From Eledone cirrhosa (taxonomy: Eukaryota): 64,000 bases of DNA. Below the pieces are notes generated by a model. That model had not been told where the DNA came from and searched no databases. It saw nothing but the letters and a program-made list of their open reading frames with translations. Every line of letters begins with the position of its first letter. Positions within the stretch are counted from its first letter, which is position 1. Below are positions 2,750-62,838 of this stretch, in pieces. Both the position numbers and the translations under genes were made by a program. Where the stretch lies: NCBI GenBank assembly GCA_964016885.1, contig OZ024741.1, forward strand, positions 347,200,001 through 347,264,000. Direction: 5' to 3'.

Positions 2750-4179
2750 TCTTTCCCGCTACGTTGATGATATAAACATCGTAGTTATAACAACCCCACT
2801 AGAGAACAGTCAGGAATTAGAGCAAAAAACACAATGGAAAGCATCGAGCAAATAGCTAACTCCATCCACCAGAGTATTAGAGTTACTATAGACTACCCAA
2901 GCAAACACCCCAACCATCGATTACCTGTACTAGACACAGAACTCTGGTTAGATACCATTAATAACAAAAAACAAATCCTCCATTCCCATTATGCCAAACC
3001 CATGACTTCCAAATATCTGATCCACCGAAACTCAGCTGTTTCGGACCATACCAAAATCAACATACTGATTGCGGATTTGGTACGGGTGATGAGAAACGTG
3101 TCCCGCATGTGCAACCACAAATAACTAGAGAGACACATACAACACTTCATCCACCGTATGCAGCTCTCTGGTTACAATCAGAGAGATAAAATCAGAGTGT
3201 ATAGAGGAGCCAGAATCAAATGGGAAAAAATGGTAAATAATGACACAAATGGGACCTGCCCCTTGTGTAGGAGCAAATTTTGGAATAGAATAGAAAGAAC
3301 TAGGAATAAGACTAATAGAATAAACTCATGGTATGATAGCAATAAATACCAGAGTGTAATGTTCATCGATACAACCCCTATAGGTGAATTAGCTTACAAA
3401 TTTAGAAGGGCCCTAGATAAACATAAACTCAATATTAAGATAGTAGAAAGACCAGGTACCTCCATAAAAACACTTATTAGCAAGACATACCCGTTCCAAA
3501 GACCCTCATGTATAGATAAGAAATGTATAACCTGTAAAATAAGCCCCCATATTAACTGTAAAACTAGAAATGTAGTATATAGCATAAAATGTGCTGAAGG
3601 ACAATGTAGAGATAAAAATATAGTGTACGTAGGTGAGACAGCTCGTAGTGTAGGGGAACAGATAAATGAACACTGGCGAGACCTTCAAGATAGTAAAGAA
3701 TCATCTGTACTCTACCAACATGCTAAAATAGAACATAAGGGTAAATTAGAGAACATAGAAATAAAAATAGAATCTACACACATAAAAGACGCAATGTTTA
3801 GACAAGGCAATAAACAAAAGAAGGCAATAAACAGAGGCAATAAACAGAGGCAATAAACAAAAGAATTACAACCAAAATTAAATAGAAAACATGAGTGGAA
3901 CTGCAACATCACATCTTCCAATTAAGGATAAATTTAAAACACACACGCACATAGAACAAACGACCAACCAGTAACATCTAAATAAACAAATAAACAAACG
4001 AATATAAACACACACAGACACCCGGATGTGGCGCATGCGCAGACTGAGTACACAACACACAGAAACAAGATGGCGTAGGGCAGAACAAAGGAGAGGCACA
4101 AAAACAAAGAAAAGAATCCCTAGACACTGAAGAGGTCACAGAATGTGTGACGAAAGAACTTTGAGAATATATAAACAAC

Positions 4180-28950: not shown

Positions 28951-30179
28951 TGAGATAAACCTGAGTAAGTGAGATACACATGAGTCATTGTTGCAGTGTT
29001 GCTGAAGACAGTGGATATGTTGACGATCACAGGTTCCTTGACTAACAAATTTATTCTTCCAAAAGCGTTGAAATATAACTTCAAAATCAGGGGCATGGGA
29101 GTGGAATTTCAGCTAGGTCAAGGCACGAAAATCTCCATATGGTTTAAATACACAAGTCTCCGCTATCCAAGTGGCTAAATGTCTGCAGAAGAGCACCCAG
29201 GAGGCATCACTTTGATACAGACCCGCCTCCCATGTGTGTAAGTAGCTAAAAACCGAAAGACTTGCATGAATGACTTTCCTTTCTGAAGACCTACTGCTAT
29301 CCAGCTCTCCTGAGTATTTATCAACACTGTAAGCATACATAAAGAAATATATAGAGATATGGTCAAAACACTCACGCTCACACATAAGAAATTCAAACAC
29401 ACACACACATACACACACACACACGCACACACACACACAAGCACACAAATAAACACACATATCTTTACTTTCTTTATTCAATAGAAAATCTGAATTCTGA
29501 CGCCCCAGCGAACTAACCATATTCACTGAACCAGAAAAATTCTCCCATCCCTTTTTCTTGACCATTATCTTTTTATCATAAAATTCTCTAAAAAGGCTAG
29601 AGAATGGATTTCTAAAGAAGGGCACAAAAATTTAATGAAAATTTGTTCACGTGACAGCCATAATTTCATTTATAACCAACCAAAAAAAAGTCTTCGTGAG
29701 CTTCCTTTTTTCAAGTAAAAAGAAATTCAAACACTCATATATGAAAAAACAACCTGTCACAACCCCCCTCCCCTCTTATTTGAAGAACTATTGTAACGCG
29801 AACTGGCGCGAAATTTATTATAATTATTGACAAACCAATCAAATTACTTCTCGAAAAACCTGGCATTTCGAGCCACTCATTCCATATAAAACAAGTAACA
29901 TTCAGAGACCAACCAGATGTGAGAAAAACCACAGACCCTCCATCTCAACTCACCTTTTGAAAAGCAGAAGAACTGCGAAACCGGTAAAGGAACCAAATAT
30001 ACTTTATACTTTCACTCGTGTAGGACACCTCGGTTATTTTTCATTTTGTAAAAAAAACCCTCACTTTCTAATATATATATTATATATATATATAAAATTT
30101 CAGGTTATCAATAATGTAGTGATAATATATCGTTACGTTAGAGATGAACAGCGTACGTGCAGGTTTGCTCAACGAGTAT

Positions 30180-32245
30180 AAATTATATTCCGGAGAAATG
30201 TAGAAAGGATGAATATAAAATGAAAGTGCTTTTGTTAAAAAAGGAATTTATTAGGTATTGACATATGTTTCTGTAACAGACCGAATACCTATGTATCGCT
30301 GCTTGCGTAATCATATAATGTTAGCAAGTATTCGATAGCAAATGTATAATCAGCTGTCACTTCTTCAGAGATTTTGGATAAACTGGATAAAATCAGAAAA
30401 ATTGAAGTATTTATATTAGTAAAAGAGGAAGGAACAGAGGGGATAGTATATGACAGATGGTAAAATAATTTACTGCTAAACAAGTATATAATGGGTTTTT
30501 AATGAGAATACCATGAGTACATCTAATTAAGAATTTTGGGAGTGCCAATTTTAATCTCTACTTGACCAACTGGACAGTGGACAGGGCTGGTCATTCGGTG
30601 CAGTAGTATTAATTATAAAGTGTCAATTGGGGAAGGGGGAGATTTCGATTGCTACTAAATAACATCAATGCTAGTAGCCAGCTGGTATATGCATTAGGGA
30701 ATTGAATCAAGAAATCAGAAATCTCATTTTATCTATAGCAGTTTGTATTAAAAGGTAAATAATAGAAGAGTTGATAGAATTAAGACTAATAAAGAATGTT
30801 CATATCTATTTTGACAATCAAACGGGGATAGAGACAGGCGTTCAATCCTGGTAGTATTTATAATATGAAAATGTAGATTTTAAGCGATGGTTACAGTATA
30901 ACGATCGCTCTATTCTGTTATTTAATAAAATGTTTTTTGATTTCATAATACAAAATAATTCTACATTACATAATTTACAAAATTCCTGTCCTTGGGGTTA
31001 TGGGGGGGGGGGGGGGGGGGGCAGCCGCTATTATATCCCATTTTAGGTGAAATTGTTGGTTATTTTCACGCAGCTGCCAAGCCTTGTCTGCGAGTGTTGT
31101 TACATAACGCTGGTTTTCATGTTTTATCGAATAACGATGTCTATAAAGGCGTGATTTGAAGGGGGTGGCTGTAGATCCCACATAGTACCACTTCTGTCTA
31201 TCCGATTCGATAGTACATTTGTATACGATGTTGCGTTCAAGACACTGATTGTTCAACGGACACATTCCTGGTTGGACACAGTTGCAATTATAATTTTGCG
31301 TTGTTGTATTGCCATGGATGGGTTGATGAGGTTGCTTATGTAGGACAGGATGTTGTTTGTTGTTTTGTGATGTTATAGCTAATGTTTTACGTGTATTGTT
31401 ATGTGTTGGAAGGCGTTTATACAACCGTTTTGCGTTAAGCTTTTATATATGTTGTTCAATATTAGGGGCGGTTGAATATGAAAGTCGAATAGTGTTAGGG
31501 TTTAAGATTTTATTATATTTATGTAATGTTGGAAAGTGTTTTCTAACTAATCGAAAGAATTTTGAGGGTAGATTGGTTTTAATAGATTTGTTATAGACCG
31601 GGTTGTACCAGATATACTCCTTACATCGCCTTCTGTTTGGTGGTGTGCGACTATTATTGTGTCTATTGCGGTAGTGTATGTATGGTGGTGATTCTGTGCT
31701 ATTTCTACTCCTATGTGATTTATTTTGGGTGTTTTGGTGATCTTTGACTATATACTCTATATTATCTAGGTGACCGGCTTTCCTAAGTGCATCATCATAA
31801 TACTCGGCATGTTCTTTGAGGTTTGTTGGTTGGACGATAGGCGGGAGATCCTAAGAGAAACATTTCTAGGGATGGATTTAATTATAAAGAGTGGATGGTT
31901 AGAACTCGTATTTACATATTTAAGGTTCTCATTTAGTTTATGGAACGGTTTAATCGTATCTGTATTGAGATTGAAAGTAACATCAAGGAAATTGACCTCT
32001 TTGAGGTTATATTCAACTCGTATTTACCTCTTTGAGGTTATATTCAACTCGTATTTACATATTTAAGGTTCTCATTTAGTTTATGGAACGGTTTAATCGT
32101 ATCTGTATTGAGATTGAAAGTAACATCAAGGAAATTGACCTCTTTGAGGTTATATTCAAATGTAATATTTAATCCTAGTTCCTTAAAAAGCTTTCTGATA
32201 TTTTTACGCATCCTTTCTAAATTCTGGTTATTCATATGCTTATAT
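30180..32245 (-). mobile_element. Naiad-type PLE, second family, 5'-truncated
   Basis: LFKELGLNITFE..EVNFLDVTFNL, WYNP, CNC..GMCPLNNQCL..NIVYKC..YVGST..FKSR..H (GIY-YIG). HHR near the 3' end. Confidence 0.9.
30255..30375 (-). ncRNA. Type-I hammerhead with ~90-nt stem II (stem I decayed)
   Basis: CTGAAGA-a-GTGACAG...CTGTTAC-a-GAAAC-ATAT-GTC. Inner helices TATCG/CGATA and CTTGC/GCAAG. Confidence 0.7.
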
Positions 32246-32316
32246 ATATATATATAAATTATTAAATATGCTTATATATATATATATAAATTATTCATAT
32301 GCTTATATATATATAT

Positions 32317-33039
32317 ATAAATTATTAAAAAAATAATGAATAAACAAAGAAACAGTTCCTTATATTAAAAAAAATTCATTATTTTACGATCGTTTCTAGG
32401 ATATATATGTGTTAGAATTGGTATGCATATTCTATAGATCTATGTACAATATTTATACAAACTATCAGAGGGAATATACATACCTTCACATATATATGCT
32501 GTCTTCAGAAATAATGATACTTGTTTATTGATAAGAACAAAGATTCAATACAATAGGTCTGTTTGGGAACAGGTTTTGAATTGACCAATCAGGAGATAGT
32601 GAGGGTCAAGATAGTGATACAGTATTAGAAGAACGAAGGTAGATTTCAGTTTTGGATGGAAAAGAGTGTTATGAATGAAGGATTACTTTAGGGAAGAAGT
32701 AGGTCATAAGTTGACCTCAGAAATAATTTTATTTGTTCATTGAATAAAACCAACAAAGATCCAATGTAATAATGGATTACTTTAGGGAAGGAGTAGGTCA
32801 TATGTTGACCTCAGAAATAATTTTATTTTGTTAATTGAATTTAACCAACAAAGATCAAATAAATTCTGTCTGTTTGGTAAGAGGTTTAGAATTAACCAAT
32901 AATTGGCCAAATAGTAAAATAGTAGTAATTGAAACTTATTTTAGGGGTGAAACTAGGTCATGTGGTCAGTAGAAGGTATACAAGCAGTTGCTGTTATAAA
33001 ATAGTGATGCCAATACAAATATCTAAGGTGACCAGAGTC
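32317..33039 (-). repeat. 3' pseudo-LTR of the Naiad element
   Basis: Matches 37005-37726 with about 3 differences seen by eye. Confidence 0.95.
32376..32517 (-). ncRNA. Type-I hammerhead ribozyme with extended stem II
   Basis: TCATTATTT-CTGAAGA-[105 nt rod]-GAAAC-GATC-GTA-AAATAATGA. 9-bp stem I, GUA cleavage triplet. Confidence 0.88.
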
Positions 33040-34267: not shown

Positions 34268-36719
34268 TTAATTAGGTTTATAATATTTAAATGTTTTTCT
34301 GAGTTTATGATTACACGATATTATTAATTCCTGTCGCTTATTTAATAGGATATCCTTAGATTTCATTATTTCGAAAAGTTCTTGGGAACACAATCTACAT
34401 TCATTTCTACTATTTTGATAAGGGGTGGCCCTTTTGAGCACACTCCAGGTCAGGTCATATTCTATATTCTCCTTTCTATAACTATTAATTTTTTCAGCTA
34501 GAGATGTTGTATTAGCTAGTGCGGCATTTTTAAAACTATGTTTGTGGGTATTAAATCTTACCTTAAAATTGTTAGAGGTAGCTCCTATATATGAATAAAT
34601 AGAGTCCTTAGTGTTAACTCTACATTTATATATTATGTTATTAACAAGGCAATTTCCTTTTAATGGACAGTTTGCCTTGTTTCTACAGTTACAACTTTTC
34701 GTGAATCCTGTCTCTGAGGAGATCTTATGACTAGTTTGATGTACTGGTGGTATACTTATGGTTTTTTTACATTTATATGCATTATAGGCACTTATATTTT
34801 GTTTTATGTTTTTGGTTGTTGAGTAGGAGAATTTAACTGTTGATCTATTTAAGATTTGATGGTATTTGTGGTTTGGCGGGAACTTTTTCTCTAGGATATT
34901 AAAGAATTTTCTAGGTATATTATCCTTAACTTGTAAATTAAATGGAGCATTATACCAAGTAACTCGTCTATTACGGTTTCTATGTTGTTTATTGTTTTTA
35001 TAGGATGCATCCTGATGTTTACTAGGAGAATTATTGTTAATGACCTCTCCACACACATTTTTAGTTAGATTTATTGATTTAGGTGTTTTAGCTTGTTTAT
35101 TAGGAGTTTTATTATTAACATTTATTAGAGTTGTAGGATGAGTAGTTTTTTGAGAGTTACTATACTGTATATAGAGGAGTTAGAGAAATTTGGTTTTATG
35201 TTGGTATTTTGGGGTATAGTGTGAGTGGCATTTAGGTGTGTACGTTTCATTTGGTGTTTGTTGGTAATATTAGGTTGTATGTTTGTAGTATTATTGGTAG
35301 AAGGTATATATACTAATCTATTTTTGTGGCCACTTCTAGCTAGAGCTTCGTTATAAAAGGTCGCATTTTTATCAAATACATCTTGGTTAGACGAAAGGTT
35401 AGAAATTCTAAGTGATATATTATATGCAAGGTTTTTAAGGATATATTTAGGGTGATTAGATTGTGAGTGTATGTAGTGTAAATTTTGGTTGGGTTTATGG
35501 TAAGGTTGGTAGATACCCGTAGATAAGTCTAATGTTATATCTAGGAAATTAACTACTTTACTTGTGTTTTCAAATGTAATATCTAGACTATAATAGTCTT
35601 TAAGGAAAGTTCTAATAAGCTTTTTATTTTTTTCTATCTCTGAGAGGCTAAGGTTATTGGAAAGATGAAGACAGTCGTCACGATATAAACCACCTTTAAT
35701 GTGGGGAAAGGAAGCATTTATGTTAAAAAGAAGAAAGAGGCCCACAAGATCAGTAATTTGGGCAGAATCGCTTGAGCCCATAGTAATATCAAAAAGATTA
35801 CTATATGTGTTTCTGGTCCAGTATTCATTCTGAAATTCCAGTAGTGTTAGTCTAGCATGTGTAATAATATTAATGTCATCCAAAGTTAAGTTAGATCTAT
35901 TTTTAGCAAATATCAAGGCTTTGTTCAGGAGTATAGGTGATATAGAAGAATAGTAATTATCTATATCAAATTGTAGAAATGAAGCAGAGGATTTATATCT
36001 AATATTATTAAACCAGTTCTTACCTGGGATGTGTTTTCCCAGAGTGGTAAATTAACATGTTTTCTTATTTGTGGGATGACTCTATCTAAAATTTTTTTAC
36101 TAATTATTGCAATATCAGATTTGGAAGGGCATATAAGTCTTATAGAAGGATTAGAGTTAAAGTTTGATTTATGATCTTTCAGGTTGAAGTGTGGTCTTTT
36201 CAATGCCAAAGGTTCAGTTCTATCTTCAATATTAAGTCTATTCACTATGCTGTGTGTTTTGTTGTTGATATTGGTAAGTGACGCATTGTTTGTTTTTCTA
36301 TAATTTTTCCTGAGTTCTTTATATATGAACTCATTGTAATTTTCAATATCCATGTGATATAGGTTTCCAGTTTTTTCCGAGTGGACATGGATTTTTTTAG
36401 ATTTTTTTAGGTCCAATAGGGTAGAATGAAGGTCCTTTTGAAAGTTAGATTTATACCTCTTAAATTTGAGGTGTTTGATTAAATTAAAAAGGTCTTTCTC
36501 AAAGTTTTCAAGTAAAGAGTTGTGTGGTGGATTTTTATATGTCGTGAAATCATACAGATATTTCCTATCTGTATATTTTGATTTTTTATCGAAGTGGTAG
36601 GCCCTCCATCTGACTCTTCTGATAAATTGGTTGGTTTTTTGTATCATAAGAAGTAAGAAATCATCCTTAGAAGGCAATGGTATATTCTTTAAAGAAGTTA
36701 CCAAGTATTGTTTTTCCAT
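34268..36719 (-). pseudogene. Naiad RT-GIY-YIG ORF (about 817 aa when repaired), two -1 frameshifts
   Basis: SLKNIPLPSK, FIRRVRWRA, LKDHK.NF..NPSIRLICP, FDIDNYYSSI, DITMGSSDSAQITDLVGL, GLYRDD, NFLDITLDL, WYNAPF, CNC..CPLKGNC, IYKC..YIGAT, CRLC. Frameshifts at about 36020 and 35172, both in frame in the 60-63 kb copy. Confidence 0.93.
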
Positions 36720-37004
36720 TGTGATATGGATAATGAACAAGAAAAAGGGCTCAACTATTTGTATATGGAGTTATAAAGCCATACACATATATGCATATAT
36801 ATATATATAAATTTACATACACATACAATACAAAAATAAGAATATCCCCGTGAAAATAAGAGCAAAGTATGTAGATAAATCTACCAAAAGTTTACGGTAG
36901 TGTCCAATCCGTATGAAGAACTCAATGTAATCCGGATATCATGAAAAGAGAAGATGCATTCAAAAACTACTTTCGGTGAAAAATAAACGGAAAACAGAGT
37001 CAAG

Positions 37005-37726
37005 ATAAATTATTAAAAAAATAATGAATAAACAAAGAAACAGTTCCTTATATTAAAAAAATTCATTATTTTACGATCGTTTCTAGGATATATATGTGTT
37101 AGAATTGGTATGCATATTCTATAGATCTATGTACAATATTTATACAAACTATCAGAGGGAATATACATACCTTCACATATATATGCTGTCTTCAGAAATA
37201 ATGATACTTGTTTATTGATAAGAACAAAGATTCAATACAATAGGTCTGTTTGGGAACAGGTTTTGAATTGACCAATCAGGAGATAGTGAGGGTCAAGATA
37301 GTGATACAGTATTAGAAGAACGAAGGTAGATTTCAGTTTTGGATGGAAAAGAGTGTTATGAATGAAGGATTACTTTAGGGAAGAAGTAGGTCATAAGTTG
37401 ACCTCAGAAATAATTTTATTTGTTCATTGAATAAAACCAACAAAGATCCAATGTAATAATGGATTACTTTAGGGAAGGAGTAGGTCATATGTTGACCTCA
37501 GAAATAATTTTATTTTGTTAATTGAATTTAACCAACAAAGATCAAATAAATTCTGTCTGTTTGGTAAGAGGTTTAGAATTAACCAATAATTGGCCAAATG
37601 GTAAAATAGTAGTAATTGAAACTTATTTTAGGGGTGAAACTAGGTCAGGTGGTCAGTAGAAGGTATACAAGCAGTTGCTGTTATAAAATAGTGATGCCAA
37701 TACAAATATCTAAGGTGACCAGAGTC
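37005..37726 (-). repeat. 5' pseudo-LTR of the Naiad element
   Basis: Direct repeat of 32317-33039. Confidence 0.95.
37063..37204 (-). ncRNA. Type-I hammerhead ribozyme with extended stem II (5' pLTR copy)
   Basis: Same sequence as 32376-32517. Confidence 0.88.
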
Positions 37727-43569: not shown

Positions 43570-44237
43570 ACAATGTAGAGACAAACATATAGTGTACATA
43601 GGTGAGACAGCTCGTAGTGTAGGGGAACGGATAAATGAACACTGGCGAAACCTTCAAGATAGTAAAGAATCATCTGTACTCTACCAACATGCTAAAATAG
43701 AACACAAGGGTAAATTAGAGAACATAGAAATAAAAATAGAATCTACACACAGAAAAGACGCAATGTTTAGACAAATCACAGAGGCAATAAACATAAAAGA
43801 ATTACAACCAAAATTAAATAGAAAATATGAGTGGAACAGCAACATCACAACTTACAATTAAAGACAAAATGAAAACACACACACACATAGAACAAACAAC
43901 CAACCAGTAACATGTAAATAAACAAATAAATAAATGAACATAACACACATAGACACCCGGATGTGGCGCATGCGCAGACTGAGCACACAACACACACACA
44001 GAAAGAAAATGGCGTAGGACAGAACAAAGGAAAGGCACAAAAACAAAGAAAGGAATCCCCAGTCACTGAAGAGGTCACAGAGTGTGTGACGAAAGAACTA
44101 TGACAATATATAAACAACTATCTGGTTGTGGAACCAACCAACCAACCAGAAATTTATAAATTTATAAATTTATTATAAATTTATTATAATAAATTGAAGT
44201 GAAAGCAACTGGTGCGTGTGTTTCTTATTGGCAACAT

Positions 44238-60045: not shown

Positions 60046-62838
60046 TAATAAAAACAATGAAATAAAAACAAAAAACAAGTTCTTTATATTAAAAAATCAT
60101 CATTTTACGATCGTTTCTAGTATGTATATGTATGTTGGTATGTATATCATATAGATCTATGTAAAAATATTACAAATTATCAGGGGAAATATACATACCT
60201 TCACATGCTGTCTTCAGAAATGATGAGATTTGTTTATTGAAAAAAAATTAACAAAGATTTAATATAAAATGTCTGTTTGGGAACAGGTTTTGAATTGACC
60301 AATAGAAAAGTAGTTAGAGGTTAAGTTGATAGAATAGTGGTAGTAGAAATTTAATTTAGAGGTAGAGGAGTGCAGACTTATATTTTTAATGAAAATAATA
60401 CTTTGAATGAAAAGAATACTTTGGAAAATTTGATGTTATTAAAGGATAATGTTAAAAACGAAGGAAAATAAAATGTTAGGATACGGGTATTAGTGAGAAA
60501 TACCAATCTTATTTAAACCACAATGAATCTAGATCTATAACAAGAAATTAAATTAATTGATAGGGATAAATTTATATTAATTCATATGAATGTGATAAAT
60601 AAGAATTAGATGTTATTAAAAAGTGTTGTTAAAAACGAAGGAAAGTAAAAGTTTGGGATAAGGTTAGTGGTGAGAAATACCAATCTTATATAAACTACAA
60701 TCTTATAATTAATACCTAAAAGTATACCTATAAATTAATTTAATTTCCTGTTATGTTTATAACAGGAAATTAAATTAGTTTATAGGTATACTTTTATGTA
60801 TTAATTTTTGGAAAAGAGAGCTGTAAGAGGGAAATAAAATTATGAAGTTCTCTGCAGTAAAGTACTAATTATAGCTTAACTAAATAAAAAAAAACTAATT
60901 ATAATAATATGTAAAATATAAGTGTAAGGTGTATATTAATTAGGTGTATAATATTTGAAGGTTCTTCTAATTCTATGATTGCAAGATATAATTAATTCCT
61001 GTCACTTATTTAATAGGATATCCTTAGATTTCATGATTTCAAAAAGTTCCTGGGAGCATAACCTACACTCGTATCTGTTATTTTGATAAGGGGTGGCCCT
61101 TTTGAGCACACTCAAGGTCACGTTGTAATCGATATTCTTCTTCTTATAATTATTAATTATTTCAGCCAAGGATGTTGTATTAGCTAATGCGGCATTTTTA
61201 AAACTATGTTTATGGGTATTAAATCGTATATTAAATTGGTTGACGTAGCTCCTATATATGAATAAGTGGAGTCTTTAGTGCTAATTTTACATTTATAGAC
61301 TATGTTATTAATAAGACAATTTCCCTTTAATGGGCAATTTCTTTTGATTCTACAGTTACAACCATTCGTGAATATTATATCAGGGGAGTTAGTCAAATTT
61401 GGTGTGGAATTTACTCGACTTGTTATAGGTGAAGGAGATGGTGGTTTATTGCGGTTTATTTTAGTATTATGGTTGGTTTGATATGTTGGGGGTATATTTG
61501 TGGGTTTTTTTTACATTTATATGCGTTGTACGCACTTATATTTTGTTGTATATTTTTGCTAGTGGAGTAGGAAAATTTGACAGTTGATCTATTTAAAATG
61601 TGATGGTATTTATGGTTTGGCGGGGAGTTTTTCTCTAGGATAGTAAAAACAGTTTTAGGGATATTATCTTTTAATTTGTAGATTAAATGGAGCGTTATAC
61701 CAAGTAACCCGTCTATTACGGTTTCGATGTTGTTTTTTTATATGTATACGATGTATCAGGATATTTACTAAGAGAGTTACTATTAGTGAATGTATTATAT
61801 ATAGGTTTAGTTACATTAATTGATTTAGGTGTTTTAGTCTGATTACTAAGAATGTTGTTAGTAATGTTGTTAACATATATTGGAGTATCAGGATGAATGG
61901 TTTTTTGAAAGTCATTATATTTTATGTGAGAAGAGGTAGAGAAATTAAGTTTTAGGTTGGTATATTTGGGTGTAGTATGAGTGGCATTTAGGTGTGGGTT
62001 TTCATTTGGTGTTTGTTGGTAATATTGGGTTGTATGTTTGAAGTATTATTGGTGCAAGGTATATAGACTAATTTGTTTTTGTGGCCGCTTCTAGCTAAAG
62101 CTTCGTTATAAAAGGGCGCGTTTTTATCGAATACATCCTGGTTAGATGAAAGGTTAGAGATTCTGAGTGAGATATTATATGCTAGGTTTTTAAGGATAGA
62201 TCTAGGGTGATTGGTTTGTGAGTGTATGTAATGTAAGTTATGGTTAGGTTTATGGTAAGGTTGGTAGATGCCCGTAGATATGTCTAAAGTTATATCTAAG
62301 AAATTGACTATTTTACTGGCGTTTTCAAATGTAATAGTGAGATTGTAATAGTCTTTGAGGAAAGTTCTAATAATTTTTTATTTTTTTCAATTTCTGATAG
62401 GCTAAGATTAGTGGAAAGAAGAAGACAGTCATCACGAGATAAACCACCTTTAAGGTGGGGAAAGGATGAATTAATGTTAAATAGAAGAAAGAGGCCCACA
62501 AGATCGGTAATTTGGGCGGAATCACTAGAGCCCATAGTAATGTCGAAGAGATTACTATATGTATTTCTGGTCCAGTATTCCTTCTGAAATTCCAGTAGTG
62601 TTTTTTTAGCGTGCGTGATAATATTAATGTCATCCATAGTTAAGTTCGATCTATTTTTGGCAAATATCAAGGCTTTGTTCAGGAGTATGGGTGATACAGA
62701 GGAATAATAAGCATCTATATCAAATTGTAGAAATGAAGCAGATGATTTATTTCTAATATTAGTAAACCAGTTAATTACCTGGGATGTGTTTTCCCAGAGT
62801 GGTAAATTAACGTGTTTTCTTAATTGTGGGATGATTCT
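60040..62838 (-). mobile_element. Naiad-type PLE, diverged relative of 32317-37726, 5'-truncated
   Basis: Colinear homology over RT, linker, GIY-YIG and pLTR. Catalytic motif reads GLSRDD. Frameshifts present. Confidence 0.93.
60097..60226 (-). ncRNA. Type-I hammerhead ribozyme with extended stem II
   Basis: TCATCATTT-CTGAAGA-[93 nt]-GAAAC-GATC-GTA-AAATGATGA. Compensatory stem I change relative to 32376. Confidence 0.88.

Follow-up and report, generated by a model that had tools for sequence, protein, structure and literature searches.

A predicted hammerhead ribozyme with a long, very probably selected stem II in the pLTRs of a Penelope-like retrotransposon of Eledone cirrhosa

Both pLTRs of a Penelope-like element (PLE) in the window, that is, the whole 64,000-nt stretch of DNA analyzed here, carry a type I hammerhead motif whose stem II is extended into a 105-nt rod. 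The evolution of its copies across the genome leaves us in little doubt that this rod is a real and selected RNA structure.

Hammerhead and host element

The first-pass annotation had described the hammerhead of the 3' pLTR. Its complete type I core and 9-bp stem I were confirmed on the minus strand, with an intact core in both pLTRs, and the 11-bp and 13-bp helices of stem II are as described there. The features of the element and of the focal hammerhead family are as follows.

32317..33039, minus strand: 3' pLTR, 723 bp, ending in (TA)n about 65 nt past the cut site
37005..37726, minus strand: 5' pLTR, 99.6% identical to the 3' pLTR
36871..37004, minus strand: tail of about 135 nt, at the end of which lies the family's second and longer insertion end
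34268..36770, minus strand: putative Hydra-clade ORF with RT and C-terminal GIY-YIG, in three frames (frameshifted copy)
32376..32517, minus strand: type I hammerhead, 3' pLTR copy, predicted cut 32385/32384
32517-32509, minus strand: stem I, 5' strand, 9 bp with 32384-32376
32508-32502, minus strand: first half of the core, CUGAAGA
32501-32397, minus strand: stem II insert, 105-nt rod
32396-32385, minus strand: second half of the core, GAAAC-GAUC-GUA
32384-32376, minus strand: stem I, 3' strand
37204-37063, minus strand: identical hammerhead in the 5' pLTR, missing from the list of the first-pass annotation
60097..60226, minus strand: diverged copy of the focal family with a 93-nt insert, downstream of the ORF fragments 62844-60939

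The two pLTRs are direct repeats flanking the frameshifted RT-endonuclease ORF, and we infer that the hammerhead of the 5' pLTR is the dimer partner of the focal one in a read-through transcript. The type I core features C3-A9, G12-A14, A15.1-U16.1, and H17 are all present at the focal site, and positions N7 and H17 vary between subfamilies of the focal family. Three stems surround the core: stem I, which shows two-sided changes; stem II, which opens with C.A; and stem III, 2 bp around a palindrome. The rod contains more than 30 predicted pairs and runs from a weak base (C.A, A-U, G-C, C.C) through the 11-bp and the 13-bp helix and a UGAUA/UAGAU internal loop to an apical hairpin. The focal fold has a z of -4.5, and none of 200 shuffles is equally good. 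In the focal family, stems I and II show no evident tertiary contact; group C alone offers a candidate pairing (see below). Both changes previously noted in the diverged copy, a compensatory pair in stem I and U-G to U-A in the rod, were found; part of the basal rod helix is lost there. The AUAG/CUAU helix previously assigned to the rod proved not to be conserved, its 3' side being CUAU, CUGU, CUUU, or CAAU, depending on the subfamily.

Judged by its motifs and domain order, the element is a Hydra-clade Penelope-like retrotransposon. The earlier attribution of the pLTRs to a Naiad is rejected because of the domain order: the endonuclease is C-terminal and is accompanied by Hydra motifs. Naiads share the pLTRs, the inverted 5'-truncated copies, and the (TA)n targets, but have an N-terminal endonuclease and are without a canonical hammerhead (available part of PMC8557442), and neither of these two features holds here. 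The Hydra clade is defined in the same part of that paper by a C-terminal endonuclease, RWK, DKT, CxCX5C, no CCHH, CxxC/CxH, and (TA)n targets. A single ORF with RT followed by C-terminal GIY-YIG is found here, frameshifted in the window copy; an intact relative of 830 aa (L218) has YRDD at residue 363 and IVYKC/YIG at residues 709-724, and the window copy keeps this order. RWR and DKT occur in L218, RWK and DKT in L199 and L200, and RWR and EKT in the window copy; Hydra-1_Obim, compared by eye, agrees in the RWK/DKT motifs. The linker CxCX5C is present as CNCRNKANC and the C-terminal CxxC/CxH as CRLC and CNH, whereas CCHH is absent, with no cysteine pair within the GIY-YIG of the element. Hydra motifs were found in L218 and two sister families. 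The (TA)n bias is seen in 21 of 28 unselected copies, whose (TA)n end falls at either of two sites. Among six pieces searched against Pfam, one gives a sub-threshold GIY-YIG match, the sole match found; the endonuclease tree discussed below was built with unnamed homologs.

Two other features of the window are mentioned for completeness. The sequence upstream of the hammerhead shows two older partial duplications, at 32690-32900 and 37380-37590, both of which stop near TTTCTGA. A fragment of a different PLE (3125-3856 on the plus strand, and 43571-43774) encodes a C-terminal endonuclease with cysteine pairs, which by motif is probably Neptune-like.

Evolution of the rod

The covariation support offered earlier came from two copies and was thin; genome-wide copies now carry the claim. 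Two-sided changes affect 14 of 41 pairs among 22 subfamily representatives, and pairing holds in 89.5% of cells; neither value is reached by any of 500 shuffles, and slid controls give 5-8 pairs. Since this test ignores relatedness, events were counted on a tree. Here, 87 model matches yielded 57 distinct copies, of which 47 were kept, and 30 rod pairs were scored. The ten distinct copies dropped for alignment register comprised the GC-rich and the L221/L222 subfamilies and four damaged copies, and three events were reassigned before the count, being one place present twice or two arms of one insertion. Pairing was kept in 16 of 18 inherited changes versus 13 of 31 private ones (p=0.002), which agrees with the original proposal of a selected long-stem-II hammerhead. 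The inherited wobble changes comprise seven G-U and no A-C and the private ones 12 and 7, respectively, a contrast that alone is not significant (p=0.13). In one subfamily, the AU-rich basal helix is replaced by GGGUAG/CUAC-CC. The sense strand out-folds the antisense (by z) in 20 of 23 long-arm representatives, a count that overstates independence since the representatives are related; the better folding of the sense strand points to selection on the sense RNA, not on a DNA inverted repeat. Short-arm versions of the focal family arose by four deletions and were never amplified.

The UGAUA and UAGAU strands of the internal loop are fixed across subfamilies, including the most diverged. The loop columns are A.G in 20 of 20, G.A in 18 of 20, and U.U in 19 of 20 cases, and these three columns carry no inherited change, whereas the other unpaired columns carry 36. 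A GA(R)U...AG(C/A) loop located 26-39 nt from the core occurs in nine of ten group A and B representatives. Overall it is present in 11 of 23 representatives versus 1.7 expected, a post hoc comparison since the motif was defined from these same sequences, and it is absent from the branched groups C and D and from six of seven medium-arm representatives. The tandem G.A of the loop has what we take to be a resemblance to SECIS or a kink-turn. Neither identity is claimed, since group B is without the second GA and no in-frame stop interrupts the intact ORF.

Other hammerhead families in the genome

A second hammerhead family is present in the window next to the focal one.

30255..30375, minus strand: family 2 hammerhead, core 30368-30260, 90-nt rod
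32232-30857: family 2 Hydra RT/EN fragments, upstream of the family 2 hammerhead

Family 2 had been ascribed the same layout as the focal hammerhead. This holds for the rod, present as a 90-nt insert, but not for stem I, which is reduced to one proximal pair. Up to about 2,400 pattern matches of this family, mostly near-identical copies, have an intact rod and a nearly lost stem I; the rod is thus retained in a setting of seemingly weak cleavage. In family 2, bases 30252-30259, the eight that follow the cut, are complementary to the rod segment 30283-30290, a possible alternative fold.

The pattern of the focal family has 10,972 matches in the genome and none for the reversed control, a number far above chance. 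For the core pattern, 12,907 matches (571 in the control) were found with N7=A and a spacer of 95-125, 10,662 (553) with other N7 and a spacer of 85-115, and 13,271 (2,944) with a spacer of 8-38. The count at a spacer of 45-75 (21,420 versus 1,286) is inflated because LINE RT codons mimic the hammerhead pattern; at L170, L171, L174, and other loci, the codons for ADDL and a downstream GAAAC produce such mimics. The loci studied are the first listed places on one contig (C1), among the matches listed.

These loci fall into several sequence-unrelated long-arm families, with rods in groups A and B and branched arms in groups C and D. The long arms span 75-116 nt, and the arms of other families 45-70 and 11-20 nt. 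Stem II forms a branched junction with two hairpins at four group C loci (L123, L126, L223, and L108) and one group D locus (L136). Groups A and B, L109, and short-arm families have Hydra endonuclease domains upstream; one group C copy has such a domain 1.75 kb upstream, a weaker link, and group D has no linked ORF at the loci examined. The endonuclease tree joins groups A and B as sisters with weak support, places short-arm families within this weak clade, and does not separate one long-arm origin from several. The group A covariance model gives other long-arm families at most 34.8 bits, versus 94-158 bits for its members. For group B, RNAalifold recovers the basal eight pairs only, seven of them with two-sided changes.

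Inverted copies join 7-20 nt upstream of CUGA in 9 of 22 head-to-head pairs of group A, among the matches listed on C1; the same junction occurs in 5 of 12 pairs in a short-arm family and in 1 of 13 pairs in family 2. These junctions suggest a fold-back hot spot at stem I, independent of arm length. In group B, in medium-arm hammerheads, and in many outside Hydra hammerheads, AAUAAA or AUUAAA follows the cut on its 3' side at a distance of about 10 nt or less.

Cleavage and possible role of the rod

PLE hammerheads with an unstable palindromic helix III cut weakly, as dimers (available part of PMC4209133), and the cleavage of one PLE hammerhead in vitro was protein-assisted and dispensable for insertion (available part of PMC11167929). 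Self-cleavage of the focal hammerhead under some condition is probable. By analogy, we infer that cleavage at GUA would be slow, needing a dimer via the ACGAUCGU palindrome and/or protein help; in group C, the stem III palindrome shows covariation. Insertions terminate 54-75 nt beyond the cut site in 13 of 28 copies and 191-211 nt beyond it in 8 of 28, and since they run past it, uncut or religated RNA would be copied. In the window (36871-37004) and at loci L004, L007, L055, and L057, there are two distinct 3' ends, separated by about 135 nt and found one per arm of inverted pairs. This tail of about 135 nt exceeds the published 30-40-bp tail, and small hairpins precede its distal end.

As the leading, still tentative, reading of these data, to which we give somewhat less than an even chance, we propose that the rod is a scaffold and a sequence-specific docking site for the RT-endonuclease of the element. 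It would clamp the weak base of the ribozyme and present the fixed, purine-rich internal loop for binding by this protein. The proposal draws on the weak dimer-type motifs, the protein-assisted cleavage in PLEs, the insertions past the cut, and the amplification of family 2; a docking or scaffold role is further favored by the unpaired UGA(U)/AG loop, which is fixed within the family and recurs in a sister group. Arms of 10-25 nt occur in Hydra elements both of this genome and from elsewhere, so Hydra transposition in general does not require the rod. We rank this role ahead of passive folding-back, cleavage control, editing or small-RNA production, and an intron, in this order.

Stem II could have grown passively by slippage or duplication in AT-rich sequence, selection demanding only that it fold back and the rod having no job. 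Pair-preserving evolution is expected under this explanation too, and it fits the continuum of arm lengths across families (11-20, 45-70, and 75-116 nt), the difference in arm shapes between rods and branched forms, the basal helix consisting of an (AU)n tract, and the 9-nt duplication in the apex of one subfamily. We nevertheless consider it unlikely, though a serious competitor: unpaired loop bases are fixed while their neighbors vary, matches drop sharply above 116 nt (2,067 versus 1,007 in the control at a spacer of 117-147), the deleted versions failed to spread, and there is no long arm among 58 outside hammerheads. An improbable explanation is that the arm supplies or blocks the tertiary contact between stems I and II and thereby adjusts cleavage, so that the 3' end is not cut too early; the protected 3' end would hold the nearby AAUAAA-like signal and the RT start sites. 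Group B has AAUAAA just 3' of the cut, insertions reach 54-75 or 191-211 nt past it, so that the template is uncut or religated, and in family 2, UAGGUAUU in the rod is complementary to the bases that follow the cut. A GGGC upstream of stem I in group C could pair with GCCC at the junction, immediately beyond the basal stem II, but this pairing is without clean covariation, and no such pairing is seen in the focal family.

We give very little chance to the rod serving as dsRNA for ADAR editing or for the production of small RNAs. Most inherited G-U pairs did come from A-to-G on the sense strand; however, A-to-G is the main route to G-U because the rod consists mostly of A-U pairs. Among 24 unselected copies of family 2, A-to-G accounts for one of 13 private changes in the rod, the group A private changes comprise six A-to-G versus four T-to-C, and the focal helices do not exceed 13 bp. 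Editing, earlier put forward as a second role of the rod, thus leaves no signature in young copies. We give the least credence of all to the insert being a spliceosomal intron of the kind known from PLE pLTRs (GUAUGU donor, CUAAC, and YAG ending at G12), whose splicing would yield a short hammerhead. The donor, CUAAC, and YAG motifs do occur in the window copy, and the Penelope intron adjoins its hammerhead (available part of PMC4209133), but the donor and branch motifs are kept only in part of group A, and several long-arm families lack the AG that precedes GAAA. A GT..AG segment, 37149-36967, is skipped in one contig (depth 5.7, run X1, one of four runs of contigs that carry no information on expression); this skip has no copies in the genome assembly. 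Moreover, short Hydra hammerheads commonly have a mismatch at the base of stem II. An intron in stem II was rejected since none of the four short copies is a precise splice product and the motifs are not kept across families.

Returning to the scaffold and docking role, a broader form of it seems possible to us, though more doubtful than the role itself: by sequence, the Hydra stem II in the host lineage may be an evolvable protein-binding domain, with a 45-116-nt arm and a recurring non-canonical loop read by a telomerase-related RT. If true, this would represent the first cis-acting RNA recognition element to be defined in a Penelope-like element, and standard searches would overlook tens of thousands of ribozyme motifs. 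It is an open question why PLEs retain hammerheads (available parts of PMC8557442 and PMC11167929), and the arms of 11 to 116 nt in one genome provide natural constructs separating cleavage from binding.

Comparison with known hammerheads

The expectation that searches with capped stem lengths miss the focal hammerhead was borne out by Rfam. At E<=10, the region 30100-32700 has four matches, with no hammerhead family among them, and no hammerhead family occurs among 150 of the 163 matches listed for the whole window. With more than 20,000 core matches at 85-125-nt spacing in this genome, length-capped descriptors and Rfam undercount hammerheads. The "no hammerhead" or "half core" calls in other PLEs used short spacers (7-17 nt, with 35-50 nt noted) and merit a re-test.

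As an outside control, 77 Hydra-like loci from metagenome contigs gave 58 hammerhead calls, all with 10-25-nt arms; a relaxed look at the remaining 19 loci gave two more short candidates and no long arm. The focal arm of 105 nt is four to ten times longer than those of relatives elsewhere. In the Clec2 hammerhead, the insertion sits in stem I. This discontinuous hammerhead (available part of PMC6765202) also has core halves split by a long insertion and a cut site adjoining the polyadenylation signal; unlike the present one, it resides in a mammalian mRNA 3' UTR, with several hundred inserted nucleotides.

No description of a PLE hammerhead with a stem II of such length was found in a literature search covering part of the supplements, and the available parts of PMC3088659, PMC10085705, PMC6765202, and the preprint 10.64898/2026.07.22.740005 mention no long-arm PLE hammerhead. 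The long-arm architecture is apparently unpublished.

The following comparisons refer to the available parts of the cited papers. The minimal metazoan PLE hammerheads (Cervera and de la Pena 2014, PMC4209133) share the pLTR location, the unstable palindromic helix III implying dimers, the low expected activity, and the high diversity of families within a genome. Their "larger than usual" helix II has 6-8 bp and a conserved G10.1-C11.1 pair, whereas C.A or U-A is found at this place here. The longest stem II tabulated in PMC8557442, that of the PLE-X1_sMoe hammerhead (9-bp stem and 34-nt loop), is about half the focal length and belongs to an unrelated clade, and its loop is not established as a selected rod. 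The Hydra-clade hammerheads (Craig et al. 2021, PMC8557442), for instance those of Hydra-1_oBim and Hydra-1_aMil, share with the present one the type I core, the location in the 3' region of an element with C-terminal EN, the palindromic short stem III, the mismatch often seen where stem II begins, and the (TA)n targeting. Their listed stems II consist of 3-7 bp with 3-10-nt loops, whereas the arms described here, of 105 and up to 116 nt, contain internal loops or branches.
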